Sequence record: MN871446.1
Length of the DNA: 64,000 nt
Origin: Klebsiella phage KpLz-2_45
Direction: 5' to 3' (one strand)
Every line of letters starts with the position of its first letter. Position 1 is the stretch's first letter. Below the pieces are notes generated by a model. It had not been told where the DNA came from. It ran no database searches and was given only the letters and a program-made list of their open reading frames with translations. The translations under genes were made by a program, and so were the position numbers. Below are positions 8,247 to 49,450 of this stretch, piece after piece.

Positions 8247-8264
8247 CTATTAAGGTAATATATG
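8247..8264 (-). promoter_or_regulatory. Conserved intergenic motif copy (putative early promoter); reads ATATATTACC..TAATAG in the gene direction
   Basis: ctattaaggtaatatatg, ~50 nt upstream of the GNAT gene start. Confidence 0.45.
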
Positions 8265-8377
8265 TTTTAAACCAACTTCACTGGTTAATTAACTTCTTAC
8301 TATTTTAACGATAACAAAATAATTACACAGGCGCACGACTGAGAGAGGCAAAACCTCTCTCAGTCGATGTGTTTTAC

Positions 8378-10561
8378 TTAGATGATCTGATTCAAGTGTG
8401 CGGTACGTGTGCTCAATACCCTTCCCCGGAAGAGTACCTCTTTACTCCGCCAGTAGTCGAGATGTTTATCAATGTTCATGCAAACAAAGCAATGATAACT
8501 CTGTGGGAATTTCTTCTCCCCTTTGAGTTCACGCAAACGCCCTAACGCCTGAACGTTCGCGTTTGGTGAGTCAATCGCAACGGTCAGATAGGCTTGCGTC
8601 AAGTTAGGGATATCCACCGCGGTACCGGATTTACCAATCGTACTGAAAATGATATCCGAATCCAGTAACAATTGATAATCGTCTCCTGATGTAAAGGAGT
8701 TGATCACCAGTTCCGGGAGACGTTTCCTGAAGAACGTGGCCAGGCGCTGGCACATCTCAATAGTCGCCGAGAAGATTAACAGCTTATGTTCCCTTTTCCT
8801 CTTCTCTAACCAGTTATCCTTGGTGTAGTCAAAAAGCGATTCTTGCCACCGTTGCTCTCGTTGCCTGTCTGCCATGATCCAGGCTTCGTACGTCGTATGA
8901 CTGTACGACCCTTGACCTCCGACGACTTTCGCTTTCTGCCAATCCTTCAGATTATACTGGACTTTCACCAGATCGATATACCTACTTGGTTGCCCGCCAT
9001 TTCGCCGCAGTTTTTTCGGTAAGAAGGTTTCGTAGATGAAAAGTTGAAAATCCATCTTAGCCAATAACGTAGCGGTCAAATAAATCTTTTTCGGAACATG
9101 CGAATAGAGATCAGAGACAAAGTTCGCATGAATTTCTTTATGCGCTTCATCAATGATAACCAGACCTATCCCCAGAAACTCCCAGAGATCTCTCGGATTG
9201 ATATCTTCGCAATCAGTCCCAACCACTCTCCCGTTATTCCAGTTCTTGTAAAAGTCCCTCAACGTGGCTGTGGAAATGAAAATCGCCTTAACATTATCAA
9301 TACCGGTAGTCTTCGCTTCCCGTAATAAACGATAGAGCTTTACACAACCGCAGCACGAACGAACCTCTTCCGGCTTGAGATTGAGTTTAGCGTAAAACTC
9401 CGGTATCCATCGATCCTCGTAGCCGCCGAGTGTTACCACCGCAAAACGGGTTCCGTTATTCTTTGCCATCGCCAATGAACAAGCCGTGTTATGGGTCACG
9501 ATATAGTCATCGGTGATGTAGAGATGTTCAGGGTCATCAATCATGATGCACTGAGTGGCCTCAGGCTCGCGTTCTTCGATTGAAGTAATAGCTAACCGCT
9601 CTTGGGTGAAATCGACACGTAATGTGTCCCTTGCCTCATCTAAGTAGGCAAGGCCACCATAAGCCCGTGCGGTATATTGTATTGCCTCCAACAATTCAAG
9701 GCCCCCTAAACTAACCGTAAACTCCATTTCGTCCTGCGAGGTCTCTGTTACCATTCGGAAGTCGGCAGGTAAAGTCTGACCGAGAATGAGCGGCACAGAG
9801 AAAGAACTTTCCCCTAGCCGGTCTTTTATTTCGCGGGTCGTGATAACTTTATCTTGTTGTTCCTCGTTTTCTCGTACTGACCAGAGATGTTCCGGGTTAA
9901 CATCGGTATACCGCCCATCAGCAAAGTGGATACGCCAGACGTCAGTCACGCCCTGCGGGAAGACCCCTATGACAGAAGCGAGGCGCCTCTTAGGTGTCAC
10001 GACCTGTTGCCCGACTTTCATCTCGCCCATGGTTAACCAACCGTCAGGGACTCTGATCTTAGAAGAAAGCGTCTGAGCCTTACCGAACCCAGGCTCTGCG
10101 GTGATCGCTTTCTGGATACCGGGACCCGAACCGAATTCAATAATCGGCACCTGGTTATCCCACGGTGTGAAGTCCATCTCAAACTCAAACTTCACCGGTT
10201 CGTACATCGGAACAACATCGATTTCAAACGTGCAGCCATTCCATTGGTATTTTTCCGCTTCCTGTTTAAAGCGTTCCAGTGTGTTGATGTGGAAACACGT
10301 CTCTTCCGTTTCAAGGTCTCGGCGTGCGTAAACCTTGGTAGGTTCCATTCGGAATCGCCCACGTTTCTTCACTAAGTTTTTCTCAATAAAGTGCTCAGTG
10401 AATTGTCGACGGAATTGTCGGCCTTTGGCGGTATAGGCAAAAACGGAAAAGTAGTGGCTATATTGCGTGATACGTAGATCCAATGTCTTAGCCCTCACAG
10501 GTGATAATCGAATCTCGTAGATTCTTTTCTCTAGGTATAGGTCTCTATAGGAATTACTCAC
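8378..10561 (-). CDS. SF2 (DEAH-type) DNA helicase with an intein-like insertion in the Walker A P-loop
   Basis: EPGFGK and TACSLAM join to give a clean GxGKT Walker A. Motif II is VIIDEAH and motif VI is QALGRLRE. The ~197-aa insertion begins AQTLSS and ends IVTHN followed by Thr (HN then +1 Thr, as at intein C-termini). The start codon is GTG. Confidence 0.65.
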   Translation of the reverse strand: MSNSYRDLYLEKRIYEIRLSPVRAKTLDLRITQYSHYFSVFAYTAKGRQFRRQFTEHFIEKNLVKKRGRFRMEPTKVYARRDLETEETCFHINTLERFKQEAEKYQWNGCTFEIDVVPMYEPVKFEFEMDFTPWDNQVPIIEFGSGPGIQKAITAEPGFGKAQTLSSKIRVPDGWLTMGEMKVGQQVVTPKRRLASVIGVFPQGVTDVWRIHFADGRYTDVNPEHLWSVRENEEQQDKVITTREIKDRLGESSFSVPLILGQTLPADFRMVTETSQDEMEFTVSLGGLELLEAIQYTARAYGGLAYLDEARDTLRVDFTQERLAITSIEEREPEATQCIMIDDPEHLYITDDYIVTHNTACSLAMAKNNGTRFAVVTLGGYEDRWIPEFYAKLNLKPEEVRSCCGCVKLYRLLREAKTTGIDNVKAIFISTATLRDFYKNWNNGRVVGTDCEDINPRDLWEFLGIGLVIIDEAHKEIHANFVSDLYSHVPKKIYLTATLLAKMDFQLFIYETFLPKKLRRNGGQPSRYIDLVKVQYNLKDWQKAKVVGGQGSYSHTTYEAWIMADRQREQRWQESLFDYTKDNWLEKRKREHKLLIFSATIEMCQRLATFFRKRLPELVINSFTSGDDYQLLLDSDIIFSTIGKSGTAVDIPNLTQAYLTVAIDSPNANVQALGRLRELKGEKKFPQSYHCFVCMNIDKHLDYWRSKEVLFRGRVLSTRTAHLNQII
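9488..10077 (-). mobile_element. Putative mini-intein (~197 aa, no recognisable homing-endonuclease motif) inserted after the Walker A lysine of the helicase. Coordinates are ±2 nt.
   Basis: The extein junction restores GFGK|TACS = GxGKT. The C-terminal ...YIVTHN|T is a canonical His-Asn plus +1 Thr. The internal TDVNPEH is a possible block-B TxxH. Confidence 0.5.
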
Positions 10562-10585
10562 TTAGTGTAAAAATACCGTAGATAA

Positions 10586-10621
10586 AACAAAAAAAAGAAG
10601 GAGGGAATTACCCCTCCTTCT
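10586..10621 (-). terminator. Rho-independent terminator after the beta' C-terminal-like gene
   Basis: 9-bp GC stem gaaggaggg/ccctccttc followed on the minus strand by T8. Confidence 0.7.
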
Positions 10622-10627
10622 CTCACC

Positions 10628-12595
10628 TTAGATACGTTTTAAACGCATTTCCTTATCGACATCCAACAACAGATAGTCGAAGGGATGGTTCTCTTTAATC
10701 GGGTCATACGAGCCCGGAGAGAGCATGTTTTGATACTGCTTCTCGTAAGCACATTTCACCGAGAGACTCCGTCCAGACATGATATCGGATTTCGTAGCGA
10801 AGTAACGTCCCGTCCCTTTCTTCGGTAAACGGAAATCGCCATTCTTCGGATCACGCGACATCATGGCGTAAAGGACAATTTCCACAATCGCCAGGTTAAC
10901 CGAGAACTTACGGTTCGTCATTTCCGAAATGTCTTTCAACGCCATCGCCAGAATGTCAGGGTCGGTTAAGTCATACCGTAACCGCTCTTTCGATTCCTTA
11001 CTCGACATGAAGATATTGGATTTTAACTCCATCATCATCTCGAGCGTCGAGCTATGACGTTCCGGGAATTTCAGAATACTTTCTGAAGGGTCCCAGTTTT
11101 TCAGATCAACCCGAATCTTACGCCCTAAGTTCTGGAAACCGTAATCCTTCATGTGCTGAATAAAGGCAGCGGTTAAGAACGGTTTATAAGACGAATGACT
11201 TGTAGCGATCAATTCTTCCTTGATAGTCCCTTTGACATCGCCTTGGTGAACGATGATCATGACGTCTTCTACGCCTGAAATACGGCGGAGGTCATTTTGA
11301 CTGAACTCGGTCATCGCATGAATATCGGAAAGACGTGGCAGATACGCCATATCGATTTCGATTTCCACATGATGATTCCAGATCGCCTCAGACAGCATCA
11401 GCTCAGAAATATCCGACGCATTGACCATATAGTCCTTATAGAACGGATCGATTTCAAAACCTTCCGTCTCAGCAGAGCGCAGAAGGTGTTTCGTCGAGAT
11501 AACGTCCTGAGAGACCTTTTCGTTCTGGGTTACGGTTGCAGCATGTCCCAGGTTAGTGCCTCGTTGTACGGATCGCGCCAACTGGCCCATACAGGTGCTA
11601 CAGACTACGCCGTCATCGGGGTGCCAACAACACGCCACATTCCGCAGCTGGATCGTTTTCCCTACCAGGAAGACGTCTCCTGCCTTAATGGCTTTGAGTT
11701 GTCCTGTTTCAGTGAGATAAAACTTACCGGGTAAGATATTATCCAGTTCGTTTTTCTTCACCGTCCACGGGATCGTTTCCGTACTTCCGCAATCCCCCAT
11801 CCAAATGCTCTTCACAACGTACGTAAAGAGCTGCAGCTCACGGTTATAATACTCCGTCTGCTTAACAGGATCGTCCGTCGCCTGGAGCGCTTTAGAGGCG
11901 TCTCTGGAGATCATGGCGAAGAAACTGGCCCGATGTATCCCTTCGAAGAAACCCGCATTGACGACGTTAGGAAAGATGCTCTGATCAACTTCAGAACACC
12001 ACCCTCGTTTCCCGATGACCTGGTGGAACTGCGCCATCTTCGTCTGACCGATGTGACAGGCCAGCGCCATGCTGTTCCCTTGTAAGAAGGGGTCAGTGGC
12101 AATCACACGGGAAATCACCCCGTATGCACGGTTGACCCCGCCAGGGCTCGGTTCCATGTTATAGAGCGCATTCTGGATCTCAGGGCGGTCGTAGATATCC
12201 AATAACGTCAGAACATCAACGGTATCGATATACGCCTCGCCGCGCGTCGTGAAGGCATTGTGTAACCGGTTATTGCCGCGATAGATAGCAGCCTGTAGGT
12301 TTTCAATGTCTTCATGCGGATACGCTTCGAGAACAACCTCCTTCATGCGGTTGAGGATTTTTAATTCCAACCCCGGCGAATCAAAGTCATCCCAGAGATG
12401 ATGACGAATACTGATTTGTGCGTCAGGGTAGTCTCGAAATACCTCCCAGAAATACCAACTAACAATCGTCTGCGACCAATCTGTAATGATCTCGCCATCA
12501 CTGAAGACTAAACGAAATCGATCGTGGTCGTGTTCCTTTTTCCAGAGTTCTTCCTCGGTCCAGTGTACGATGTCTTCTGCCCACACAACTTGCAT
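10628..12595 (-). CDS. Multisubunit RNA polymerase beta' C-terminal-half-like subunit (phage split RNAP)
   Basis: CCWHPDDGVVCSTCMGQLARSVQRGTNLGHAATVTQ aligns with bacterial beta' [20 protein letters not shown]...GEAIGVIAAQSIGEPGTQ (the zinc / trigger-loop region). The start overlaps the stop of the beta-like gene by 1 nt, the same order as rpoB-rpoC. Confidence 0.55.
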   Translation of the reverse strand: MQVVWAEDIVHWTEEELWKKEHDHDRFRLVFSDGEIITDWSQTIVSWYFWEVFRDYPDAQISIRHHLWDDFDSPGLELKILNRMKEVVLEAYPHEDIENLQAAIYRGNNRLHNAFTTRGEAYIDTVDVLTLLDIYDRPEIQNALYNMEPSPGGVNRAYGVISRVIATDPFLQGNSMALACHIGQTKMAQFHQVIGKRGWCSEVDQSIFPNVVNAGFFEGIHRASFFAMISRDASKALQATDDPVKQTEYYNRELQLFTYVVKSIWMGDCGSTETIPWTVKKNELDNILPGKFYLTETGQLKAIKAGDVFLVGKTIQLRNVACCWHPDDGVVCSTCMGQLARSVQRGTNLGHAATVTQNEKVSQDVISTKHLLRSAETEGFEIDPFYKDYMVNASDISELMLSEAIWNHHVEIEIDMAYLPRLSDIHAMTEFSQNDLRRISGVEDVMIIVHQGDVKGTIKEELIATSHSSYKPFLTAAFIQHMKDYGFQNLGRKIRVDLKNWDPSESILKFPERHSSTLEMMMELKSNIFMSSKESKERLRYDLTDPDILAMALKDISEMTNRKFSVNLAIVEIVLYAMMSRDPKNGDFRLPKKGTGRYFATKSDIMSGRSLSVKCAYEKQYQNMLSPGSYDPIKENHPFDYLLLDVDKEMRLKRI

Positions 12596-14865
12596 TATTC
12601 ATCCTCTTCGAGCGCGTCGTTATCTTCTTCTGGAATTTCAAACTCATCTTCCAGTTCCGGGTCTTCATCGTAGTTGATTTCTATTTCAGGAATGTCGGAG
12701 AAATCGTCTCTGTAACCCGGCTTGGTTCGGGTTGCCGCTCGGATTTTCTCTTCTTCCACTGGGGTAATGTTATCCACGTTCATGTACGCCATTTTCACCC
12801 CTGAGCAATAGAGTGTATTGTTCAGATAGTTCAGCGCCATGCTGTTACCCAGCGGGATCTCGTTACGGTCAATACAGAAATCGAGATCAACAGGGTTTTC
12901 CGCAGAGATAATCTTACTCCATTGGTATTCCTGCGCTTTCGGGTTATTGGCACGATCCAGCATATCAGCCGCCCACTTCCCGCCAACGATACCAACATAG
13001 TTTCGAATCTCCGATTCACCGAAGAGACGGAACGGGATTTTACGGAAAGGTAAGTTGAAACGCTCACGACCGGAAGGCTTGGTAGGAACACCATGCACCT
13101 GTCGTTTAGCGATATCCACTGCACCCCAGTCATGGCCGGTTTTCTCAAGGACAATGACCTTGATTTCCCCGATCATCGTTGGCTTCGTACTGGTAACACG
13201 TTCGCCCAGATCATTGATCCAGGTAACATGCTCAACCGGTTCAGGAAATGCCTCACGTAACCGCCGACATTGTTCTGCCCCCAGGCCCGGTGTGTACGGC
13301 GGCATATAGGCGAAAATCGCATCTTCTGCCACGGCATCAACGTGTTGTTTAATCCGATCAAACGACCAATTTTGCTGATCAATCTTATCGAGATAAACAG
13401 GCGTCGCCGCCCGATAATAACGACGAAGTAATTCGTAACATTCGAGATACGTCTCCTTACTCTTACTCTCCTTCAGCATGGCACGAATCGGTTTCTCCAC
13501 CCGCTGTTCGGCGATGTAATTACAATACTGCTCGATGAACATACTGGGGTTCATTCGGTTTGCAATGCTGAAACCGTCAACGATCAGGTCAGCAGTCGTT
13601 CCGTCTTCATAACGCGGCATTTTAGCACGAGGTTTCTTCGCACAGATAACGCCTTTCATGCCATAGTCAGTCGAGAGCTTATAACCGATAGTGGGGGTGA
13701 TGTCGTACATGAAAGAGATCTTCACGTACAGCGTGGGGATGCTCTGTTTCTTTAAACGGAAACGTCGTTTTCCTTCTGGGGCCGAAGTGAAGACGATTGC
13801 ATCGGTGATAAGTCGATGAAGTTTCTTCGACAACGCGGGTTCCTTTCCTTGCCCTGCTTCACGACGCAGTTGACGATAGACTTTGACGATCGCATCCATG
13901 TAACGCAATTTCGCTTTCCACAGACGTGTGATAGCATCATCTTCACCGTATTCTTTCCCGGTGAACTCCGGCATGGCATCCAGTTTATCCCCATCAGACA
14001 TCCACAGGTCGATATCAACGACTCGCGCATTCTCAACGCCTGCTTCGATAAAATATTTCTCATCGAAATAGTAGTCGTAATCTTCCATGGCCTCCGCCGT
14101 CATTTCGACACAACCTAACATGTCGTCATATTCGCGCAGCGCCATTAAGAGTCCGTCTTTACGAATCTGCTCACCTGGTAACGGAAGAGGACGATAACGT
14201 TTACTGTTCCCGTAGGTATTGATCGGATACTTACCTTTAGGAACAATAATCGTGACCTCGCCAAAGCCCGTGGTCTGATTCTCCTTACACCATTCTTCTG
14301 ACACCAGAAAACCGTCTTCGGTCACAGCGTGATGACTTTGGAAGGTTGTTTTGGTACGGGTAGCATAAATGTAATCGCCGTCTGGCGTTACCCCCGGAGA
14401 ACGATTGAGTCGAACTCCTCGTTGAAGAATCTCGCCAGGTCGCATGAGTTTTTGATTCTCTATGACCGGGACGAATTCAAAGCCGAAGCTAGTGTGATGA
14501 GAACAATAGGTATCGTAGTCCAGGTAGTCGTATTCACGCGTTTCCATGTTACGTACGATAACAATCTTTTTCGGGTTACTTTTAAAACTCTCGGAACCTC
14601 GACCCACCTCAAACTTGTCGATTACCGCAATCACTTCCGCAGGGAACTGAACGCGACAACCGAAAGTATATTCGGCATACTCTTTCTCAACACCCACGAA
14701 AAAGCGGGGTCGATTGATCCCTTTTGTGATCAGTTTTTGCTGTATCTGCGATGCCAGCATAACCAAACGAGAAGGCGATGTACAAACTGCCCAGGGTCCG
14801 AGGTGAGTGGCTGTCCCTATCAGATCAACATCCATTTGATGTTCATTAGGTAACTTTTCTCTCAT
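12595..14865 (-). CDS. Multisubunit RNA polymerase beta C-terminal-half-like subunit (phage split RNAP)
   Basis: YGMKGVICAKKPRAKMPRYEDGTTADLIVDGFSIANRMNPSMFIEQ aligns with [46 protein letters not shown] of E. coli beta. SHHAVTEDGFLVSEEW aligns with GYNFEDSILVSERV. RLFGESEIRNYVGIVG aligns with RFGEMEVWALEAYGA. The tail is acidic. Confidence 0.75.
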   Translation of the reverse strand: MREKLPNEHQMDVDLIGTATHLGPWAVCTSPSRLVMLASQIQQKLITKGINRPRFFVGVEKEYAEYTFGCRVQFPAEVIAVIDKFEVGRGSESFKSNPKKIVIVRNMETREYDYLDYDTYCSHHTSFGFEFVPVIENQKLMRPGEILQRGVRLNRSPGVTPDGDYIYATRTKTTFQSHHAVTEDGFLVSEEWCKENQTTGFGEVTIIVPKGKYPINTYGNSKRYRPLPLPGEQIRKDGLLMALREYDDMLGCVEMTAEAMEDYDYYFDEKYFIEAGVENARVVDIDLWMSDGDKLDAMPEFTGKEYGEDDAITRLWKAKLRYMDAIVKVYRQLRREAGQGKEPALSKKLHRLITDAIVFTSAPEGKRRFRLKKQSIPTLYVKISFMYDITPTIGYKLSTDYGMKGVICAKKPRAKMPRYEDGTTADLIVDGFSIANRMNPSMFIEQYCNYIAEQRVEKPIRAMLKESKSKETYLECYELLRRYYRAATPVYLDKIDQQNWSFDRIKQHVDAVAEDAIFAYMPPYTPGLGAEQCRRLREAFPEPVEHVTWINDLGERVTSTKPTMIGEIKVIVLEKTGHDWGAVDIAKRQVHGVPTKPSGRERFNLPFRKIPFRLFGESEIRNYVGIVGGKWAADMLDRANNPKAQEYQWSKIISAENPVDLDFCIDRNEIPLGNSMALNYLNNTLYCSGVKMAYMNVDNITPVEEEKIRAATRTKPGYRDDFSDIPEIEINYDEDPELEDEFEIPEEDNDALEEDE

Positions 14866-14938
14866 GACAGACTAAACCCCTTTATGCTTCTTTCACGATA
14901 GTTAAAAATAGATTTAGACTCAGTGTCTAAACAGCCTT

Positions 14939-14956
14939 CAATAGAGTGATATATTC
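14939..14956. promoter_or_regulatory. Conserved intergenic motif copy in a divergent region
   Basis: caatagagtgatatattc, identical 18-mer to the copy near 49433. Confidence 0.45.
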
Positions 14957-14982
14957 TTTAAGTCAGTTGGAGAAACCTTGTT

Positions 14983-15420: not shown

Positions 15421-15424
15421 CGAA

Positions 15425-18543: not shown

Positions 18544-20085
18544 TTAAGGTTTAGCAATGGTAGAACGCGTCTTAATGAAGATAATGAACTCAGCCAATAA
18601 CTGTTTAAAGTTAGGCGGTACCATTAATCCGCGATGATTATCTTCAATCATCGTACTTTCGTTTGCGATCTCAGCAACGACGTCGCGTTGCCAATAGTTG
18701 TTCGCAAATTCATTATAGAAGGCGTTAACGGCGATTTCGCCGGGAGTTTTTAGCATGGCTTTAGAGCGGGCAGACCCTAAAGTTGAATAGCGTCGATATG
18801 GATAAATTTCATTGAAGACATTCAGTTGCTCCTCTTTGATTTGTCCTGCATTGAAGATATTTTGGATTCTTTCTTTCTGCGTAGCACCAATCAAGTCCGC
18901 CAGCGCCGCGAACCCGTTTTGATAAAGATAGACCTGCGCAATAGAGATCAGATCAATCGCTCCGCTGCGCTCCGTATGCGGAATAGAACGCGTAACAACC
19001 TGTTGATGTAACGTCACCGCCACCAACTTCAGTTGCGCTTCGTTCGGGTTGAAAAACTTCCTGGACTTATTACGCGCAATCACCGAGAAAAGTAACGCTT
19101 GGTCGTAGTCATCACCGAGAATACGACTGGCTTTCGCCCGCAGTTCTTTCGCCCAATAGTCAAATGCGATACGTTCGCCGTCAGAAATACTTTCCCTGAC
19201 TTTATAACTTTCCGCCGTAGACAGGTTATCTTCTTCCCCGCCTGAGTCTTTGACCATGGTCTTTGGCCTGACGTCATCTTTGCCGCTCCGTCCGCCGTCA
19301 CTTGGAAGCTGCGTTTTGATCGCGCTCCACATCTTACTGATCAGGTTAACGGTTTCGACTTGATCATCGTCATCATCATGACTCAACTGAATCACTGACA
19401 GCCGACTCACCACGAGATACGCCAACATCCATTCGGGAATATCCGCTGAACCGATCCCAAAGATGATATTCTTCATCCCCGGTGTCGTCCCCGAAACCAC
19501 CGCATCTACGAATTCACGGAAACGTTCCATCGCCTGTGATTCATAGATTTCAGTTCGACGTAAAAGCTGTTGCGCGTAGATCTCTTTGTTGGATTCTGCC
19601 ATTGCGGATTCCAACGCCAAGAACTCACTCCAGATCGGCACCATTGCTTTCAGAGCAATCGACATCACGGTCAGTTGACGATAATCCGGTTCCAGATATG
19701 TTTGCTCTGGACGATCATCTTCCAGCAAAGACGTTTTCAAATCTGGGGGTAAACGGATATCGCTGTAGTGACGCATCCAGTGATCGATCAAGGCTAACGG
19801 CAAGAACTGATAAAGTTCAATGATGTCCTCGTTGACCATTTTACTCGTGGTATTGAATTCGTACGCATTGTCCAGTTTATCACGAATGTTACGATAAACT
19901 AAGAAGACCTTTTCCTGAATGTCTTCTTCGAGATAAGAGAAGAATCGATTAATGTCACGAAACGTTGTTTCGTTCCAGGTTAATTTCTTCATCTCCCAAA
20001 AGAGCGTGTCGTATTCCCCGTGACTCATGCAGAGTACACGTGTTTTTGCTCGACCACCTAAACTTTCATCAAAATAAAATTGCAT
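18544..20085 (-). CDS. Hypothetical protein (513 aa)
   Basis: Long ORF preceded by the conserved promoter-like motif; acidic DDDDD patch. Confidence 0.5.
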   Translation of the reverse strand: MQFYFDESLGGRAKTRVLCMSHGEYDTLFWEMKKLTWNETTFRDINRFFSYLEEDIQEKVFLVYRNIRDKLDNAYEFNTTSKMVNEDIIELYQFLPLALIDHWMRHYSDIRLPPDLKTSLLEDDRPEQTYLEPDYRQLTVMSIALKAMVPIWSEFLALESAMAESNKEIYAQQLLRRTEIYESQAMERFREFVDAVVSGTTPGMKNIIFGIGSADIPEWMLAYLVVSRLSVIQLSHDDDDDQVETVNLISKMWSAIKTQLPSDGGRSGKDDVRPKTMVKDSGGEEDNLSTAESYKVRESISDGERIAFDYWAKELRAKASRILGDDYDQALLFSVIARNKSRKFFNPNEAQLKLVAVTLHQQVVTRSIPHTERSGAIDLISIAQVYLYQNGFAALADLIGATQKERIQNIFNAGQIKEEQLNVFNEIYPYRRYSTLGSARSKAMLKTPGEIAVNAFYNEFANNYWQRDVVAEIANESTMIEDNHRGLMVPPNFKQLLAEFIIFIKTRSTIAKP

Positions 20086-20110: not shown

Positions 20111-20128
20111 CAATAGAGTAATATATGC
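20111..20128 (-). promoter_or_regulatory. Conserved intergenic motif copy
   Basis: caatagagtaatatatgc, ~27 nt upstream of the 18544..20085 gene start and after the upstream terminator. Confidence 0.5.
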
Positions 20129-20130
20129 AC

Positions 20131-20170
20131 GAAAACAAATGGAACCGAGCGAGTCTCACGACTCGCTCGG
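20131..20170 (-). terminator. Terminator after the SSB-like gene
   Basis: 11-bp stem ccgagcgagtc/gactcgctcgg, then a T-rich run on the minus strand. Confidence 0.6.
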
Positions 20171-21068: not shown

Positions 21069-21914
21069 TTAGAAAAGTCTTTTTAGCATCTCAGCAGTGT
21101 AGCGGTCGTTCATCCAGTTCAGGTTGAGCCTTATTTTGTCCATCGTTGTCATCGTTGTCCATTTGAAACGTTCTGACAATTCAAGAACAGCCTCCCTCAC
21201 CGGTTTGGGGTAACGCATAAAAAGAATATTTCGGTCACCGAAGACCTGAATCGTGAACGCGTTAAATGGAATCCTCGGGTAGAGCTTTCCATCCGTCAAT
21301 TTGGTGTTCCACTGACTCTTCGATTTGATCGCACCTGAATACGATTCAATCAAACGTAATTGCGTAAACTCAGTACGGGAAAGTAAGTCAATGGAGTAAT
21401 GAGTCATAATCAGAGCTTTGATCGGTTCCCCTTTTAACTGAGAGCCTTTATCAAAGTCGACATAGCGTCCGATGGGTCGACGTAAAACCTCATCGATAAC
21501 ATTGTCCATTAAATGACGAAACGTTTTCTGAAGCGGAGTCTTCGGGTTAAACAAAATCGCGTGACGATAATCCCGTAGCAAGTTGGCGTATTCACGGTGA
21601 TATAAGGTAACTTTGTCAAGTTTCCCTTGCCCGTACTGAAGAATTTGATGGAGCTCTTCTTCGAGGGTATCAGCAAATGCTGCAACCACCGCCTGATTAG
21701 TACGCTGGCTTTTATCCTGCATCAGAGACCCTACAAGCGCTTTTCTGTCTTCGCCGTCTAACGCATCGTAGATGTTACGATAAAGCGTCCGTGTGTTGAT
21801 CCAGAGCCCTCCGTAACGTTTGTTTGGTTCAAGGGTCTCCATAGCCAAACTGGTACCAATGCTGAGCGGTAGTTCCCCTACCGCTCTTCTCGCAAGGATG
21901 TCGTAGATATTCAT
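21069..21914 (-). CDS. Hypothetical protein
   Basis: ORF. Confidence 0.5.
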   Translation of the reverse strand: MNIYDILARRAVGELPLSIGTSLAMETLEPNKRYGGLWINTRTLYRNIYDALDGEDRKALVGSLMQDKSQRTNQAVVAAFADTLEEELHQILQYGQGKLDKVTLYHREYANLLRDYRHAILFNPKTPLQKTFRHLMDNVIDEVLRRPIGRYVDFDKGSQLKGEPIKALIMTHYSIDLLSRTEFTQLRLIESYSGAIKSKSQWNTKLTDGKLYPRIPFNAFTIQVFGDRNILFMRYPKPVREAVLELSERFKWTTMTTMDKIRLNLNWMNDRYTAEMLKRLF

Positions 21915-24243: not shown

Positions 24244-24285
24244 AACAAAAAAGAAAGGGGCGAACCCCTTTCTTTTATTATTTTA
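24244..24285 (-). terminator. Terminator
   Basis: Stem agaaagggg/cccctttct with a cgaa loop; T-runs on both sides. Confidence 0.6.
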
Positions 24286-26382: not shown

Positions 26383-26418
26383 ACAAAAAAAGAAAGGACC
26401 GAAGTCCTTTCTTTTTAG
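26383..26418 (-). terminator. Terminator after the chimallin-like gene
   Basis: Stem agaaaggac/gtcctttct with a cgaa loop, then T7 on the minus strand. Confidence 0.65.
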
Positions 26419-28339: not shown

Positions 28340-28405
28340 CTTTAAATCTCCTAGGAGTTAAAACAATTTTTATCGCGATTCTGAAGGTACTCATTACCTT
28401 CTTCA

Positions 28406-28420
28406 CTATTGTGATATAGA
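28406..28420 (-). promoter_or_regulatory. Variant motif copy upstream of the chimallin-like gene
   Basis: ctattgtgatataga, ~65 nt upstream of the start. Confidence 0.4.
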
Positions 28421-28623
28421 TGTGAAAAAAGTTTGAAATGGGTCTTTTATAGCGATGAGATATAATAGACCTCACTCAATAGAGAGTCAATCGGGTTTCC
28501 GATTAGAACTTTCTACATATAATAGTCATTATGCCCATTTAGGGCTAGTCCTTCGTTATGAAGGAGTTCTTTCATAATATAGCAGATGCACTTTAAAAAT
28601 GATTAGTCGCTCGGAGAAAACTA

Positions 28624-36049: not shown

Positions 36050-36356
36050 TAACTCGATTGAAGATCGCTTCGATCATTGCGTTAAAATCACGTTTATCTC
36101 TACCCGGTAGCATTTTGCTGGGTTCTACCTTATCGGTTAACAAATAGATCCCTTGCGCCCAATGCTTTCTTTCCCGGAAATGAAACCACGTCATCCAGGT
36201 CGCGTAGAAAATTTCTTTCACGGTGAAAATACCGTGATAAGGTGAATTAATCCAGTAAAAGATCTTTGGGATCTCGCCTTTAACAATCATGACGTCACCA
36301 GACTTCCTGTAAGTCATTCTAAGCCTCTTTTTACTGTCAGTAGTACTATCTATCAA
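35907..36356 (-). CDS. Small hypothetical protein
   Basis: ORF preceded by the conserved promoter-like motif. Confidence 0.4.
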   Translation of the reverse strand: MIDSTTDSKKRLRMTYRKSGDVMIVKGEIPKIFYWINSPYHGIFTVKEIFYATWMTWFHFRERKHWAQGIYLLTDKVEPSKMLPGRDKRDFNAMIEAIFNRVNEKEKELTTLFQLEGVPRHYRVLDFSFQHNHFEITLGTEDHVDCHRY

Positions 36357-36396: not shown

Positions 36397-36413
36397 CAAT
36401 AGGGTAATATATG
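36397..36413 (-). promoter_or_regulatory. Conserved intergenic motif copy
   Basis: caatagggtaatatatg, between the phuZ terminator and the next gene start. Confidence 0.5.
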
Positions 36414-36427
36414 TCCTATTTCTTTTC

Positions 36428-36474
36428 CAACAAAACAAAATAAAAAAGACGGAGCGGGAAAACCCCGCTCCGTT
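36428..36474 (-). terminator. Terminator after phuZ
   Basis: 10-bp stem acggagcggg/cccgctccgt, then T-rich. Confidence 0.65.
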
Positions 36475-36521: not shown

Positions 36522-37490
36522 CTAGAGTTCCATCCCGTCGCCCTGAACATCGCCACGGATAAAGTTCTGCGCAGCCTTGGACTTCTTATCGCGTGCAGCG
36601 CGACGTTGTTCGTAGTCGTCAAACGTTTGGCGAAGTTCCATTAAGATCTCATTCAGTCCATCTGTATGAATGACAAAATAAAGCGAATCTTCCCCTGTAC
36701 GTTTACGGGTACCGAACGTGTTATAGTCCGCTGGGATAGTACCGGCTACCGGCTTGTTGTCGCCGTAGAGTTCCGCAACTGAAATAGGTGCGTTAACGCT
36801 CACTGCATCATCACGGTCCTGGAAGACGTCAAGGAGACCGAGCTCCGGGCTTACGCCTGCACCAAGAACGGGTTTCGCCCAGGTCAGTACGTCCGCAGAA
36901 TCCAGTCCATGATGTTTCCCGGAATAAAGATCCAGAACGGCGCGGATGGTAGCGATCATGATCGCATCGACTTCGGCGTTGCGCAGGTTGTTCTCATTGC
37001 TCTCGTAACAGACGTTACAGAACTGATTGTTCTTGATCGCAATGTTACGCAGCGACGAAATAGTCTTCATGGTGTTTTCGGTGGTATTACCCGATTCTGT
37101 CGAACCGACTAAAAAGACCAGCACCGCTTTATTCTGCGCATAAAGCGCTTCGATCAGTTTCGGACCAATGACCGAACCGCTGCCGCCGGAGGCGGAGAAG
37201 ATCAGAATGTTGAGATCGGACGGCTTCAACTTAAAGAGAATGTCGCTGATGCTTCGGTTCGTGACGTCGTAGTTGGTTTTACGGATTTTCCCTGCGCCGT
37301 CTACGCCCTCGAGGAAATACCATTTGTCAGGGTCTTGAACAGACCGCTCGGAAACGTTGGAACGACTACCGTCAACATACGCTTCTTTGACGTTAGCAAG
37401 TTCAGAAAGATCGGTGCGCATGAGTTTAGTGAGGATGTCGATACCCGCACCACCTGCGCCGTAAATAGTTACTGTGTTATTCGATGACAT
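36522..37490 (-). CDS. phuZ: PhuZ, phage tubulin/FtsZ-like GTPase
   Basis: N-terminal GAGGAG and the tubulin signature loop SASGGSGSVIGPKL (GGGTGSG-like); 322 aa with an acidic C-terminal tail. Confidence 0.8.
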   Translation of the reverse strand: MSSNNTVTIYGAGGAGIDILTKLMRTDLSELANVKEAYVDGSRSNVSERSVQDPDKWYFLEGVDGAGKIRKTNYDVTNRSISDILFKLKPSDLNILIFSASGGSGSVIGPKLIEALYAQNKAVLVFLVGSTESGNTTENTMKTISSLRNIAIKNNQFCNVCYESNENNLRNAEVDAIMIATIRAVLDLYSGKHHGLDSADVLTWAKPVLGAGVSPELGLLDVFQDRDDAVSVNAPISVAELYGDNKPVAGTIPADYNTFGTRKRTGEDSLYFVIHTDGLNEILMELRQTFDDYEQRRAARDKKSKAAQNFIRGDVQGDGMEL

Positions 37491-37576: not shown

Positions 37577-38407
37577 ATGGTGTTACAGAAAGTGATTTCT
37601 GATATTCGTTTTATCATTCCTAAAGAGGTACTCGAAGTTGCCTTTTTAGGTGACGTCGGGTTGGAAAGAAAACGACCCGGTTCATTGGATTGGGAAATTC
37701 GTAACAAAGTGATCGACGCGAAAGTCAGACCCGATTGTAATTTACTGGGTGCGCTGGAAATGAACATTCCGCTGGCAAACGCAGAAGTAACTTACGATAC
37801 CAGCGGTCTTTACCGCAACACGGTAAGAATCCCTAAGTCATTAACCGGCGGACGTTCTATCGTGCTCCCCACTTACTTTAACTATTACTACTACACCGGG
37901 GCGATCGGTCAAGTTGGTGGCTACATGGCCAATAACTACTCGAGCAACACGTGTGGTAACTCACCGTTAATGGCACAGGCCAGTCGAATCCTACAATCCT
38001 CCGCGAACTCCGATGCTACCGGTACCGCGGCAGTAAGATTGATCGGTGAAAACACGGTAACGATTAACGACTATATCGGCTCGATTACACAAGGTTCATT
38101 GGTTTGTTTAGTGAGCCACGATTCCGAGATGAATTCTATCGGTCCCCGTGCAGTTCCACAGTTCTCCAAACTCTGTCAACTGGCTTGTAAAGCGTACATC
38201 TACAACACGTTAAAAGTTAAGTTGAACGGCGGGTATCTTTCAGGTGGTACCGAGCTGGGAGAGATCCAAAATGTCGTGGACAGCTACTCTGATGCTGCTG
38301 AACAGTATTCTGAGTATTACGAGAACGAATGGCAGATGGTTCAGTTCAGTAACGATGATACACGTAACTCGTGGTATCTCCGTAATTTGATTGGCGGTGG
38401 CGCATAA
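37577..38407 (+). CDS. Hypothetical protein (plus strand)
   Basis: ORF with a hairpin terminator immediately after the stop. Confidence 0.45.
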   Translation: MVLQKVISDIRFIIPKEVLEVAFLGDVGLERKRPGSLDWEIRNKVIDAKVRPDCNLLGALEMNIPLANAEVTYDTSGLYRNTVRIPKSLTGGRSIVLPTYFNYYYYTGAIGQVGGYMANNYSSNTCGNSPLMAQASRILQSSANSDATGTAAVRLIGENTVTINDYIGSITQGSLVCLVSHDSEMNSIGPRAVPQFSKLCQLACKAYIYNTLKVKLNGGYLSGGTELGEIQNVVDSYSDAAEQYSEYYENEWQMVQFSNDDTRNSWYLRNLIGGGA

Positions 38408-40489: not shown

Positions 40490-40528
40490 ACAGAAAAAAT
40501 AAAAAAAGAAGGTGTGAAAACACCTTCT
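40490..40528 (-). terminator. Terminator
   Basis: Stem gaaggtgt/acaccttc, then a T-run on the minus strand. Confidence 0.55.
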
Positions 40529-40566
40529 TTCGTGACAGATGCACTATAAATAGCAAGAGGAATAAA

Positions 40567-44148: not shown

Positions 44149-44556
44149 TCAACTTTTGTACAACGCGATTACCTTCAAAATCTCACTGACCATCGAATCG
44201 GGAAGTTTGAAATCGTTCCGTTCCATTTGTTCCTTAAAGAGACGAATCTCTTTCAATGACCGATCCACTCGTAAACCGAAACGATCTCCTAACCAGAACA
44301 ACATCGGGTTTTTCATAAAACGTTTCAGTAGGCGTTGCTCGGGTTCCGTCAGTTCGTCAAACGTCCGTAAGACTTTAATGCGTAAGAGCAGCGGACGGCG
44401 TTTCGGGGATTCTAAGTAACGAGAGAGACGTTCAAAGAGTTCATTGTCAGAAATCTCTGGATTTTTCTCAGAAGGGATTAACCGATCGATATAGTCATCA
44501 CTGAATCCAAAAGAGCGAAGGAAACGTTCCGCAACGTCATAGTGGCGAATGGCCAT
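44149..44556 (-). CDS. Hypothetical protein
   Basis: ORF preceded by the conserved promoter-like motif. Confidence 0.45.
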   Translation of the reverse strand: MAIRHYDVAERFLRSFGFSDDYIDRLIPSEKNPEISDNELFERLSRYLESPKRRPLLLRIKVLRTFDELTEPEQRLLKRFMKNPMLFWLGDRFGLRVDRSLKEIRLFKEQMERNDFKLPDSMVSEILKVIALYKS

Positions 44557-44582: not shown

Positions 44583-44598
44583 CAATAACGTGATATAG
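44583..44598 (-). promoter_or_regulatory. Conserved intergenic motif copy
   Basis: caataacgtgatatag, 25 nt upstream of the 44149..44556 gene start. Confidence 0.45.
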
Positions 44599-44650
44599 TT
44601 TTTAATTCAATTTGAAACAAAAAAAAAGAAAGGGGCGAACCCCTCTCTTT

Positions 44651-45016
44651 TCAGCTGATCGGAACGATCTCGAGAAACCGTTTACTGACAGTAATACGGC
44701 TCCGTTTTCGTTTCGCCAACGCACGTTCCAGCACCGCCCGCAGTTTGATTGCTTGTAGCCGGGTTAAGTCCCAGACAATCTCTTTGCGCGTGACACATTT
44801 CCAGAACCCCCAGTAAGCGCCCGTGGAGATACGGATGATATTGTTCTCAGAAGCGATGAGACGCTCTCTCAGCGTCGGTAATTCCAACGTCAGTAAATGA
44901 CCAGGGGTTTTGATAGAGTCGGTTAGCTTGTCATTCAGCGCGTTATAGAGCGCTTTCATTTCACGGGGCTCGATAACCATATCTCGATACCCGTAAACTT
45001 GAATCTCAACGGCCAT
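44651..45016 (-). CDS. Small hypothetical protein, tandem paralog A
   Basis: WDLTRLQAIKLRAVLERALAKRKRSRI aligns with WKLTRSQAFRLMLRCEAFLAKRQSDRL of the next gene. Confidence 0.45.
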   Translation of the reverse strand: MAVEIQVYGYRDMVIEPREMKALYNALNDKLTDSIKTPGHLLTLELPTLRERLIASENNIIRISTGAYWGFWKCVTRKEIVWDLTRLQAIKLRAVLERALAKRKRSRITVSKRFLEIVPIS

Positions 45017-45829: not shown

Positions 45830-45870
45830 TTTTGGATACTCCGGTAGAATTGTTGAGGTAAAAGAATGTC

Positions 45871-46191
45871 TTAGGAAATGTTTTTAACTAACCGTTTGAA
45901 GACGCCCGCATCGATAGTGAAGCAAACGATGCTCGCGGGTTCGACGTAATGATTGGTCAGCGTGAAGATGTAGTCGTCGTAGGTTTGCAGTATCTTCAAT
46001 GCCGCCTCGTAGACGCTATGGTCTGCTTTACGAACTAATACAACGGTGTTGTACGAATCCCCGGGCAGGAGAAGGCGATCGCCCAGCGCGTTGGCGTCAT
46101 CGTGGGAAAAGATCAGCTCGATACTGCGGACGTCGTTTGATTCGATATCGTTCTCGAGAAAGACCACGGAGTTCATTTTTGAAAAGCGCAT
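45871..46191 (-). CDS. Hypothetical protein
   Basis: ORF. Confidence 0.4.
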   Translation of the reverse strand: MRFSKMNSVVFLENDIESNDVRSIELIFSHDDANALGDRLLLPGDSYNTVVLVRKADHSVYEAALKILQTYDDYIFTLTNHYVEPASIVCFTIDAGVFKRLVKNIS

Positions 46192-46200
46192 GTTTAACCT

Positions 46201-46878
46201 CTATTGGTTGAAAACGGAAATGAAGCGACTTACAACGCGAATACGACCTTTACCCGGACCACGTTTAATTGGGCTCGACAGCGTGAGACGATATGCTTTT
46301 ATTACATCGCCATCAAAATCTACAAAGCCAGGGGCGCTAGGTCCTTTATTTGCATAAAGACCAATGACCGGACTACCAGAAATACCATAACCATTACTTG
46401 GCTCCGTAGAAAACATAGAGTGGTTGGTGGTTTGCTCCGAAAGTCGGAGTAATGCTGCGACATCTTTATCGTTGATTGTGTCAGCGTCTTCAAAAACAAC
46501 GACTTTAGAATTATCGGGTGTGCCGTAGATATCTACCTGAGGAGTATCTTCGAGACGAACTACTTCAAACGGTTCTTCTGAAAGCGTAATAATTTCTTTC
46601 AATCCATCAATGATCGAAGACGCCGCAATAAGGGTTAACTCTTCCCCAGATGGTGTTGAATCACGAATAGAACCTCGCGTTGTTGATACAGAAATTAGCA
46701 TCCTTCTCACTGCGCTATTCATTATAAACACTTCGGTTAACGGTAGGTTGTAGAACACCTCTGCGCGCTGAATCAACTGGTAAGCAATTTCAATCCGGGA
46801 AATTTCCGTGTCCTTTACAGTGTCAAACCATGCCAGAATATCTTTAGCCGTTTCTACGGTTGTTTTTAAGTCAGTCAT
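46201..46878 (-). CDS. Hypothetical protein
   Basis: ORF. Confidence 0.45.
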   Translation of the reverse strand: MTDLKTTVETAKDILAWFDTVKDTEISRIEIAYQLIQRAEVFYNLPLTEVFIMNSAVRRMLISVSTTRGSIRDSTPSGEELTLIAASSIIDGLKEIITLSEEPFEVVRLEDTPQVDIYGTPDNSKVVVFEDADTINDKDVAALLRLSEQTTNHSMFSTEPSNGYGISGSPVIGLYANKGPSAPGFVDFDGDVIKAYRLTLSSPIKRGPGKGRIRVVSRFISVFNQ

Positions 46879-46985
46879 TTTCTTTTCCTCTAAGCTTAGT
46901 TATTCAGAAAGGTCTTTCCTTTCCTTCTTCACCTTGGCTATATATACATCAAAAAAACTGCATTTCATTCTCTTAGAAAGTTTTT

Positions 46986-48272
46986 ATGTTACCCATTCTA
47001 ATTTTGAAGGACACTGTTGTGGAAATCAAAAACCTTTTTGACGATCGTTTTAAGAACGTCGTTTACGATAGTCGCTTTGCCAGGGATGTCGCTGTTTTCA
47101 CGAAGACCTTCGAAAACAAAGGCGAACATGCAAACTTCTTTGGTAGCGGTCTACTCGGCACCGTCAGGATTCGTTGGACAAACACCGAAACCAACGGGTT
47201 CTTTGATGACATTTTAAAAATCGACCCCGATGACCTGAAAGCTGACATCGACGAACTGGATTGCATCGATCCAAGTCATATCGTGACTACGGACGCCTTT
47301 AACTTGATGATCGTCTACTGCGTCCATCGTGCGATGACCAGTGGTAAACTCTCAGCGGTACAACGAAAAGAAACCGCGATTAACCTGTTAAGAATTCTCC
47401 ACTTTAAATTCATCTGCGGGATCATCACCCGTTACTTCCCGCATGGAACAGACGTACAGATCGCACTGCGGACGTATGAGGCCATGACTAACCGCTTCGA
47501 CCTCAAGATCTACAAGACTTGGGGCAAACTCATTACGGCCCGCGCACAGTCAATTATTGAGCCTCACGGCATCCACGCGAAAACGATCCAGACCTTCACT
47601 GACGACGACGCTGTCAAGTACATGCTCTCGGATATCCAGACCCGTATTCGAACCGTGATCAAAACGTTAACGGCGCTCTATTACCAGGTCAGAGAAAACG
47701 ATGGTCGAGTTATCTCGGTCTCCAGTATGGTTGAGGTCGAGGGTAACCTCGAGCTGCGAGACGTTAAACGTGCCTTCCCGAAATACCGGCGTTACCTCTT
47801 TGAACAAATGACTGACCCGGCTAGTTTTATACGTTTGGAGTTAGTGGATATTCTGACAAAGAATGCCCCTTCGCAGAAAAAAGCGTTAATTGCCACGTTG
47901 CAATATACCAGCTTGCATGTCATTAACCCGGAAACGTTATTTAACACCAACCGTGGGAAAGAAGTTAAGCAGAGTAAAGAAACGCGTCAATTGGTTGAGT
48001 TTACGGAAAGAACGCTCGAATATACTTTCGACTTTATTCACGGTAAGGGAATCAACCCACGCAACCTCGTCGAGTTAATCGGCAGCATCAAAGCGGTATT
48101 GAACGCCTCCCGTAACAAAGAACCGGAGGTCATGTACCTCAGAACCGAAGGCGATAAGATTGTGCGTGCAGCCACCGGTAAACGCGAACCTACGCCAGTC
48201 TCTGCGGAACGAACATCGTTTATTCTGTATTTGATTCTGCGTACCCTGACAATGAACTACTACCAAAATTAA
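46986..48272 (+). CDS. Hypothetical protein (plus strand, 428 aa)
   Basis: ORF followed by a bidirectional terminator. Confidence 0.5.
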   Translation: MLPILILKDTVVEIKNLFDDRFKNVVYDSRFARDVAVFTKTFENKGEHANFFGSGLLGTVRIRWTNTETNGFFDDILKIDPDDLKADIDELDCIDPSHIVTTDAFNLMIVYCVHRAMTSGKLSAVQRKETAINLLRILHFKFICGIITRYFPHGTDVQIALRTYEAMTNRFDLKIYKTWGKLITARAQSIIEPHGIHAKTIQTFTDDDAVKYMLSDIQTRIRTVIKTLTALYYQVRENDGRVISVSSMVEVEGNLELRDVKRAFPKYRRYLFEQMTDPASFIRLELVDILTKNAPSQKKALIATLQYTSLHVINPETLFNTNRGKEVKQSKETRQLVEFTERTLEYTFDFIHGKGINPRNLVELIGSIKAVLNASRNKEPEVMYLRTEGDKIVRAATGKREPTPVSAERTSFILYLILRTLTMNYYQN

Positions 48273-48313
48273 ACCAAAAAAAAAGAGAGGGGTAACCCTC
48301 TCTTTTTATATTT
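48272..48313. terminator. Bidirectional terminator between convergent genes
   Basis: Stem aagagaggg/ccctctctt flanked by A9 and T5. Confidence 0.7.
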
Positions 48314-48316
48314 TCG

Positions 48317-49363
48317 TTATAACCCGATTTGTTTCGCCAGTCGGCAATAACCACGATAGAATGCGTCGATCAGAAGATTCTCCAGAAGCGGAATGGAAGC
48401 GATACTCTGTCCAAAGACGTTGTAGTTCCAGGTGACGTGTTTGCGTACCGCACAGGTGTTCTCGGGTCGTGGGCCTTTCACCATATAGGCAATATCACCT
48501 ACGCTGGAAGTTAACACCCAACGCCCCTGATCTTCCCGGTATTCGACGTCCGTGATAAAGCGATCGGTTTTAAACTCTTCTTCGCTCAACGGTGAACCGA
48601 TGATATCTTCCACTGCTTTTCGCATGTAAGAATCAATCAGCGGGATTTTCTCGACGTTTCCGTCGATATGGTAACCAAACCCCTTACCGAGTATTGACCC
48701 TACGTAGAAGCCTTCACAGGTGTCTTTATCGTTGGATCGATTAATCAGCTTTAGAACAAGGTCGGTTGTGCTGTCAAAGAACAGGGCAACGTTCGGGAGA
48801 AACTGGTATTCACCGCGGCGTTGACAAACCACTTTGTGCGCCCAGCTTAATTCGAAGTGTTCCCGCATGTACAGGATAAAATCTTCACCCAGTTGTTTCT
48901 GCCAGGTACGGCCGTAAAAGTCACCGGTCCACGTACTCTTGTCGTCGGCCATGGTTCCGACTGCGATCGGGCGACCATTCATCAACAACGTCCGCTGCAT
49001 GACATGAATTTTAAAACGACAGTTGAGCATAAACCGTGCTCGCGCTTTCTGACCAATAAACCCTTGGAAAGCGTGTTGGATCGCCAGGAAACTAAACGGG
49101 CTTTTCGTTTCCTGAGTGAAATGATACCGCGTAGTATCGCCGCCTTCGGTAACGAAGACAAGGTGTTTCATTTCTAAGGTAGGGTTAGTGCTAAACCGTA
49201 AAACAATATTGTCGTCCTTGTCCGTAAAGATAAATCCGTTTTCGTTACGATAACCAAAAAGACGATCTTTTTTACTGATCTCCAAAACCCCTTCGTAGTG
49301 AAAATCAGTCCCTGTTTTCTTATCGTAAACGGTACTGTAAACAAACGTTTCTATCGTTGCCAT
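48317..49363 (-). CDS. Hypothetical protein (348 aa), located downstream of the terminase
   Basis: ORF with an AAGGAG RBS. Confidence 0.5.
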   Translation of the reverse strand: MATIETFVYSTVYDKKTGTDFHYEGVLEISKKDRLFGYRNENGFIFTDKDDNIVLRFSTNPTLEMKHLVFVTEGGDTTRYHFTQETKSPFSFLAIQHAFQGFIGQKARARFMLNCRFKIHVMQRTLLMNGRPIAVGTMADDKSTWTGDFYGRTWQKQLGEDFILYMREHFELSWAHKVVCQRRGEYQFLPNVALFFDSTTDLVLKLINRSNDKDTCEGFYVGSILGKGFGYHIDGNVEKIPLIDSYMRKAVEDIIGSPLSEEEFKTDRFITDVEYREDQGRWVLTSSVGDIAYMVKGPRPENTCAVRKHVTWNYNVFGQSIASIPLLENLLIDAFYRGYCRLAKQIGL

Positions 49364-49382
49364 GTCGATCTCCTTTTAGTGT

Positions 49383-49421
49383 GGATAATAAAAAGAATGT
49401 CAGCAATAACGCCGACATTCT
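49383..49421 (-). terminator. Hairpin with T-tract downstream of terL
   Basis: Stem agaatgtc/gacattct with an extended loop, then a T-rich run on the minus strand. Confidence 0.45.
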
Positions 49422-49432
49422 GTTGCGTATTT

Positions 49433-49450
49433 CAATAGAGTGATATATTC
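49433..49450 (-). promoter_or_regulatory. Conserved intergenic motif copy
   Basis: caatagagtgatatattc, between the terL stop and the downstream hairpin. Confidence 0.45.

Follow-up and report, generated by a model that had tools for sequence, protein, structure and literature searches.

The genome of Klebsiella phage KpLz-2_45, a nucleus-forming jumbo phage of ~300 kb, raises the question of which signals start the transcription of its first genes and which polymerase reads them. We considered a stretch of 64,000 nt of this genome (sequence record MN871446.1; hereafter the window), in which a short AT-rich motif recurs between genes, always on the same strand. An earlier sequence-only reading had proposed the motif as a candidate phage early promoter used by the virion RNA polymerase. 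This proposal is supported by a match to published consensus sequences, by the genes that follow the sites and by the orthologous positions of the sites in other phages, and we put the probability that the sites are early promoters specific to the phage and of the phiKZ type, with the motif as their core, at about 85%.

Several Klebsiella pneumoniae jumbo phages of ~300 kb, among them KpYy_2_45, vB_kp_MJ359 and LPKP23, share 98-99% identity with the window (99.3% for KpYy_2_45 across positions 1-8000), and FBKp24 (genus Maaswegvirus) about 77-80%. All genome-wide counts given below were obtained on the complete genome of vB_kp_MJ359 (MJ359), joined from seven pieces. To judge from the MJ359 annotation and our own searches, the phage is nucleus-forming and phiKZ-like: the window encodes chimallin, the PhuZ tubulin and several split RNA polymerase genes, and its gene order is that of phiKZ gp39-gp74.

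Distribution of the motif

The motif had been described as the 16-mer CAATAGRGTRATATAT, present at six sites and as a variant at a seventh. Exact copies of the 16-mer are found at four of these sites (14939, 20111, 36397 and 49433; 0.00 expected), and the sites at 8247, 44583 and 28406, which read TATATTACCTTAATAG, CTATATCACGTTATTG and CTATATCACAATAGTG in gene sense, fall outside the pattern even when two mismatches are allowed. What all seven sites carry is the 8-mer core TATATYAC (in the direction of the gene), so that the count of seven holds for the core and not for the 16-mer. This core occurs nine times in the window, against 2.9 +/- 1.5 copies expected and a largest value of 6 in shuffled sequences. 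As had been claimed, the orientation is uniform, all nine copies being on the minus strand and in gene sense, and the identical 18-mer noted at two sites is part of a 20-mer, GAATATATCACTCTATTGAA, that 14939 and 49433 have in common. Eight of the nine copies are intergenic though only 8.7% of the window is (binomial p=2.6e-8); the ninth lies inside a gene, and the statement that the motif is always intergenic has to be relaxed to that extent. The distance to the start codon, given earlier as 25-75 nt, is about 20-79 nt when counted from the conserved G that follows the core.

The sites had also been placed usually just after the terminator of the upstream gene. This is true of half of them: a terminator-like hairpin lies within about 60 nt upstream at four of eight sites (315, 20111, 36397 and 44583), whereas 14939 and 28406 are located in divergent intergenic regions and the hairpin at 49433 is downstream of the site, not before it. 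Missing from the first list were an eighth intergenic core copy near position 315, a weak conserved variant (TATATAGC) near 46937 and the intragenic copy at 21597 (Table 1).

Copies as frequent inside genes as between them had been named as the observation that would speak against a promoter, and the complete MJ359 genome has a different distribution: 22 of its 32 core copies are intergenic, in a genome that is 7.3% non-coding (p=3e-18). One more is found at the 3' end of a gene, within its final 15 nt and 38 nt ahead of the gene that follows. These 23 sites are all on the + strand of the MJ359 record, which is in each case the sense strand of the gene directly downstream. Directly downstream are, for the most part, small hypothetical genes and genes for nucleotide metabolism, ATPases, the non-virion RNA polymerase (nvRNAP) and chimallin; no gene with a virion structural annotation follows any of the 23 sites.

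Architecture of the element and known early promoters

Alignment of the 23 MJ359 sites revealed a full element of about 47 bp, composed of three blocks followed by a conserved G. With this G numbered +1, the element begins at -32 and includes two conserved A after the G, at +2 and +3; its consensus is T(-32) C(-31) n A(-29); TT(-22,-21) n A(-19) n R(-17); TATATYAC(-14 to -7) nnTAnT(-6 to -1) G(+1) AA. In the upstream blocks, near -30 and -20, the conserved bases are found in 20/23 (-32), 18/23 (-31), 23/23 (-29), 22/23 (TT at -22, -21), 21/23 (-19) and 23/23 (-17) sites; the core is present in 23/23 by selection; and downstream of it the counts are 18/23 for T(-4), 20/23 for A(-3), 22/23 for T(-1), 21/23 for G(+1), which is kept at 6/8 window sites, and 16/23 and 20/23 for the two A at +2 and +3. 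The 16-mer of the sequence-only reading spans -15 to +1 and therefore missed the upstream two-thirds of the element, with its conserved blocks. The core itself exists as TATATTAC in 5/23 MJ359 sites (3/8 in the window) and as TATATCAC in the remaining 18/23; at all eight strong or possible window sites that carry it, it is AT-rich, TATATTAC-like and located near -10.

As an independent test, a position weight matrix (PWM) was built solely from those 15 MJ359 sites that fall outside the region corresponding to the window, with 10 shuffles as background. It recovered all seven sites of the first list with scores of 13.5-42, the maximum in the shuffles being 12. With the core masked, the flanks of the same seven sites still scored between +1.5 and +27.3, whereas the random mean was -34.9 (standard deviation 10.7).

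The resemblance to the early promoters of phiKZ, suggested in the sequence-only reading, is correct for the core, since a published table gives TATATTAC (PMC7058600). For the phiKZ consensus we relied on secondary sources (PMC5312081, PMC7058600); a full-text literature search for the string TATATTAC returned unrelated papers only. The phiKZ early promoters number 28-32 sites, mapped by primer extension, differential RNA sequencing (dRNA-seq) and Oxford Nanopore Technologies (ONT)-cappable-seq, and in phiKZ and phiR1-37 the conserved start site is 6 nt downstream of the consensus element (PMC5312081). The element in the window has the same core as phiKZ, the same spacing to the conserved G, the TT-n-A-n-R block just upstream and the A at -29. 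Its positions correspond as well: in phiKZ, TATATTAC ends 72 nt before gp54, for which a primary start site with the early motif has been mapped (PMC8244752), and 33 nt before gp68, and here the core ends 71 nt before the chimallin gene (chmA) and 32 nt before the gp68 orthologue, within 1 nt in both cases. A variant, TATATCAT, stands ahead of gp70.1-gp71 in phiKZ. By contrast, phiKZ has T at -9, where this lineage prefers C (TATATCAC, 18/23), A rather than C at -31, and an A-rich run upstream where the sequence is mixed here; the phiKZ sites are mapped and those described here are known from sequence alone.

Other jumbo phages show the same layout to different degrees. In 201phi2-1, whose early consensus is TTAWTAVAA_HYWTTTRARR_BTATATTACDWHDGTG (PMC7058600), ONT-cappable-seq showed the -10, -20 and -30 regions to be conserved, as they are in phiKZ, and -31 as well (PMC11512511); it has in common with the element described here the three blocks, a core followed by N5-T-G and the conserved -31, and it differs in that an early promoter is near only some of its nvRNAP subunit genes. 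The early consensus predicted for OBP and the Klebsiella aerogenes phage N1M2, TBYAWWWWWTTTCARRYAKATATTATYWAAGTG (PMC7058600), when anchored on the core, places T-B-Y-A, TTT-C-A-R-R and the trailing G on positions conserved here, but its core is ATATTAT instead of ATATYAC and these are only distant relatives of KpLz-2_45. The AR9 early promoter, AAATATATATTAT-(6N)-G+1 (PMC5312081), likewise has an AT-rich core near -10, a spacing of 6 nt and an initiating G, and is read by an injected multisubunit polymerase; its AT-rich core is longer, the same upstream blocks have not been reported, and AR9 is a Bacillus jumbo phage with uracil DNA and not a chimallivirus. Wherever it was tested, the early motif has been confirmed by transcript profiling as an early promoter (PMC7598289), and according to reviews, all jumbo phages that encode RNA polymerases of their own contain a motif of this kind.

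Conservation between phages follows the element. The promoter-like sequence ahead of chmA is recognisable in FBKp24, Moabite (TATATTCC), PhiEaH1 (TACATTAC), PCH45 (TATATCAT) and phiKZ, in each case followed by N5-T-G-AA. In FBKp24, TATATCAC is kept at 8/8 orthologous sites, and ungapped identity, which is 95% within the core, falls to 62-63% for the 20 nt upstream and the segment from -6 to +1, to 53% for the next 20 nt and to 32% farther downstream. The promoter features annotated in the FBKp24 record are sigma-70-style predictions and do not coincide with the motif.

An oriented intergenic signal need not be a promoter, and sequence alone cannot tell the two apart. The motif could be an operator for a phage regulator or an RNA-level signal, such as an RNase processing site in a polycistronic RNA, and the hairpins that follow several of the sites would be in keeping with this. 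We hold it to be very unlikely, given the block-by-block match to promoters with mapped starts in phiKZ, 201phi2-1 and AR9, the conserved blocks that reach about 30 nt upstream of the core, as is typical of polymerase contacts, and the four sites just past terminator-like hairpins, an arrangement that suits a restart of transcription better than RNA processing.

Downstream genes and the polymerases

A phmmer search with the proteins of the window against PDB 7OGP, the solved phiKZ nvRNAP, identified orthologues of gp71/73, gp74, gp55 and gp68, the last being the fifth nvRNAP subunit and the promoter-recognition subunit in phiKZ (PMC13282480). With these four matches, the sites at 14939, 20111 and 28404 stand directly ahead of gp71/73-gp74, gp68 and chimallin-gp55, respectively; they are intergenic and in the orientation of the operons that they precede, where in 201phi2-1 only some of the subunit genes have an early promoter nearby. 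This gene context fits early expression, as had been held for the copy upstream of the chimallin-like gene; the predicted promoter at 28404 precedes both chimallin and the gp55 orthologue. Chimallin was identified from the nuclear shell protein annotation in the relative and from tblastn matches to nuclear shell proteins among GenBank phages; a single-protein chimallin query against IMG/VR found no relatives.

About 28 early promoters serve the virion polymerase of phiKZ after its injection, and transcription from them leads to expression of the nvRNAP subunits (PMC13282480). By analogy, a multisubunit virion RNA polymerase (vRNAP) would be packaged in the particle of KpLz-2_45 and injected along with the DNA, and would recognise the sites described here without host sigma factors. 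Transcription would start at the G, 6 nt past the core, early in infection, and the first genes expressed would include chimallin, for the shell of the nucleus, and subunits of the second, non-virion polymerase, which would then take over middle and late transcription. The lineage apparently encodes an enzyme suited to this role. A BLASTP comparison of MJ359 gp209 (543 aa) gave 35% identity (E=7e-101) to phiKZ gp180, described in the phiKZ record as RNA polymerase beta subunit and structural head protein; gp209 is followed by a gene for a 1495-aa subunit resembling gp178, and both are beside the giant tail-fibre gene, as in phiKZ. These matches point to a virion-type multisubunit polymerase, the packaging of which in the virion is predicted. 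A PDB search with MJ359 gp209 and gp140 gave no match to a phiKZ-type virion polymerase, and PHROGs does not distinguish virion from non-virion polymerase subunits.

The same gene context bears on the reading of the sites as middle or late promoters, used by the nvRNAP instead of the virion enzyme. The middle promoters of phiKZ carry no more than a weak motif, AT-rich or TACT, near -22 to -24 (PMC7598289, PMC8244752) and its late promoters a TATG overlapping the start site, all four bases of which are required (PMC7598289). The motif in the window matches the early consensus instead and ends in ATTG; no site has TATG at the predicted start, the sites ending in (T/G)TG preceded by TA, as in CTATTG. 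In addition, sites stand ahead of four nvRNAP subunit genes, whose expression cannot rely on the nvRNAP alone, and no copy precedes the structural and terminase genes of the window, so that we regard use by the non-virion enzyme as highly improbable.

A host sigma-70 promoter, with TATATY as -10 hexamer, would be available to the Klebsiella RNA polymerase as soon as the DNA is injected. Such promoters have a TTGACA-like -35 hexamer 16-18 nt ahead of a TATAAT-like -10 hexamer that ends in T. The sites lie between genes and are oriented towards the genes, as such promoters would be, and TATATT has five of the six bases of TATAAT. However, three 20 kb scans (window 1-60000) found no -35/-10-like pair overlapping any of the sites on the gene-sense strand, 18/23 sites have a C where the -10 hexamer requires its final T, and the conserved AC, the nnTAnTG tail and the A at -29 have no counterpart in a sigma-70 promoter. 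Sigma-70-like matches were rarer than expected in all three scans (19 against 27.4, 22 against 26.4 and 16 against 24.2), a deficit that fits a phage not using the host polymerase, and phiKZ-like phages transcribe without it (PMC8244752, PMC13282480). We therefore consider recognition by the host enzyme extremely improbable, and retain the reading of the sites as early promoters of the virion polymerase.

Several points weigh against this reading. Its functional part rests on homology of sequence and position: the literature on this phage and its close relatives contains no transcript, start-site or timing data, and the genome papers do not discuss promoters. The vRNAP genes lie beyond the window, and the evidence on them comes from the 98-99% identical relative. 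In AR9, one mismatch can inactivate a predicted early promoter (PMC5312081), and some of the sites may therefore be inactive; at 315 and 8247 the predicted start is A and not G, and the upstream blocks are weak at 315 and 36397. As the early promoters of 201phi2-1 are not adjacent to all nvRNAP subunit genes (PMC11512511), gene context alone is not decisive. Finally, the strong terminator-like hairpin shortly after the site at 49433 is awkward for a productive promoter.

Individual sites, hairpins and significance

The sites differ in quality (Table 1). Those at 14939, 20111, 28404, 44583 and 49433 are strong predictions and that at 36397 is somewhat weaker; the site at 8247 is probably a promoter, and those at 315 and 46937 are possible ones. 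The intragenic copy at 21597 lacks any flanking signal and is predicted not to be a promoter.

Table 1. Coordinates of the predicted promoters, associated genes and hairpins in the window
Feature	Position (strand)	Core; predicted +1	Score or match	Context
Predicted early promoter	14939..14970 (-)	14946-14953 TATATCAC; G 14939	exact 16-mer; PWM 37.2	ahead of gp71/73-gp74 orthologue operon; 5' leader about 73 nt; core kept in FBKp24
Predicted early promoter	20111..20142 (-)	20118-20125 TATATTAC; G 20111	exact 16-mer; PWM 27.7	ahead of gp68 orthologue; terminator-like hairpin 20170-20145 just upstream
Predicted early promoter	28404..28435 (-)	28411-28418 TATATCAC; G 28404	PWM 42.0	ahead of chimallin, then gp55 orthologue in the same direction
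Predicted early promoter	36397..36428 (-)	36404-36411 TATATTAC; G 36397	exact 16-mer; PWM 13.5, flank-only 1.5	ahead of 136-aa gene 35907-36317; terminator-like hairpin 36473-36449 upstream; core kept in FBKp24
Predicted early promoter	44583..44614 (-)	44590-44597 TATATCAC; G 44583	PWM 37.9	ahead of 135-aa gene 44149-44556; terminator-like hairpin 44652-44623 upstream; core kept in FBKp24
Predicted early promoter	49433..49464 (-)	49440-49447 TATATCAC; G 49433	exact 16-mer; PWM 26.8	begins 2 nt past terminase stop codon; ahead of 348-aa gene 48317-49363; core kept in FBKp24
Predicted early promoter, variant	8247..8279 (-)	8255-8262 TATATTAC; A in place of G, next base G	PWM 21.3	ahead of acetyltransferase gene 7718-8200; orthologous FBKp24 site canonical, TATATCACtctattG
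Possible eighth promoter	308..339 (-)	315-322 TATATCAC; A at predicted start	flank-only -10.1, under PWM threshold, above random mean	ahead of small gene running off window start; weak upstream blocks; terminator-like hairpin 356-339 upstream; orthologous FBKp24 site TATATCACaacagtG
Weak candidate ninth promoter	46930..46961 (-)	46937-46944 TATATAGC, variant	PWM 14.5-14.6	ahead of gene 46201-46878; orthologous FBKp24 position TATATTGC, flanks conserved
Intragenic core copy	21597..21604 (-)		flank-only PWM -57.6, below random mean	inside open reading frame (ORF) 21069-21914
gp71/73 orthologue	12595-14865 (-)		7OGP chain C, E=4e-77	
gp74 orthologue	10628-12595 (-)		7OGP chain D, E=4.6e-67	
gp68 orthologue, fifth nvRNAP subunit	18544-20085 (-)		7OGP chain B, E=2.6e-31	
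gp55 orthologue, nvRNAP beta' N-terminal subunit	24900-26354 (-)		7OGP chain A, E=1.4e-64	
Chimallin	26438-28339 (-)			
PhuZ tubulin	36522-37490			
Structural and terminase genes	49466-56948 (-); 28624-29718, 37577-38407, 46986-48272, 57112-60821 (+)			no motif copy ahead
Terminator-like hairpin	49394-49421 (-)		-17 kcal/mol, z=-4.8	followed by TTTTTATTAT; starts 12 nt past predicted start 49433
Leader hairpins	28380-28401 (-); 14912-14931 (-)			few nt past predicted +1 of chimallin and gp71/73 promoters
Similar terminators, examples	10593-10624, 24249-24276, 26387-26416, 40504-40531, 44623-44652, 48280-48307			stem of AAAGAGAGGGG / CCCCTCTCTTT type, then T run
Second element ahead of chimallin	28505-28530 (-)	CTATTATATGTAGAAAGTT		about 110 nt upstream of predicted chimallin early promoter

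The hairpin that begins 12 nt past the predicted start at 49433 puts this promoter between the terminase stop codon (49466) and the apparent terminase terminator, and the whole arrangement of stop codon, promoter and hairpin is conserved in FBKp24. The predicted starts of the promoters for chimallin and gp71/73 are likewise followed by hairpins. For the chimallin leader, FBKp24 has GAAGATA/TATCTTC where the stem is GAAGGTA/TACCTTC here, so that both sides differ and the pairing is kept. These two leader hairpins are possibly stabilising 5' stem-loops, a feature not found at all sites. It is conceivable, if rather unlikely, that the promoter-proximal structures at 49433 and at the other sites with conserved 5' hairpins form a regulatory layer, in which the virion polymerase may ignore intrinsic terminators that stop the non-virion polymerase, or in which early transcripts may be attenuated or stabilised by the hairpins; if so, one intergenic region would give two outcomes at different times of infection.

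Many terminators of the window are alike (examples in Table 1), with a similar stem followed by a T run, and several of them are symmetric and scored on both strands. A conserved motif in common has also been reported for phiKZ terminators.

The region upstream of chimallin contains a second conserved element, CTATTATATGTAGAAAGTT, which is found ahead of chimallin in FBKp24, Moabite, PCH45 and phiKZ (AATAATATGTAGTGAAC). It includes TATG, which is the consensus at start sites of the non-virion polymerase in phiKZ, occurs once in the window and is probably a second, middle or late, promoter of chimallin; both an early and a middle start site have been reported for phiKZ gp54 (PMC8244752). The possibility that the TATTATATGTAG element upstream of chimallin represents a second class of repeated promoter was ruled out, as it is unique in the window.

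Between ~300 and 5400 the window differs from vB_kp_MJ359 by insertions/deletions of about 880 bp, and a 323-aa ORF (4440-5411) is without counterpart in the MJ359 annotation; the match to KpYy_2_45 extends over the whole window, this segment included. A cluster of about 13 tRNA genes lies in MJ359 just past the left end of the window, and the FBKp24 record has an annotated suppressor tRNA (tRNA-Sup-TTA, 46041-46120) near the region homologous to the left flank of the window.

The element most likely belongs to a well-known class of promoters and introduces no new principle. What the analysis provides is a specific, testable map of predicted early transcription for a group of Klebsiella pneumoniae jumbo phages, which are candidates for therapy, with about 23 predicted sites in a close relative and 8-9 in the window. 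The three-block architecture and its position ahead of chimallin and nvRNAP subunit genes are conserved from the Pseudomonas phage phiKZ to enterobacterial phages, and such conservation is useful for annotating and engineering these phages.

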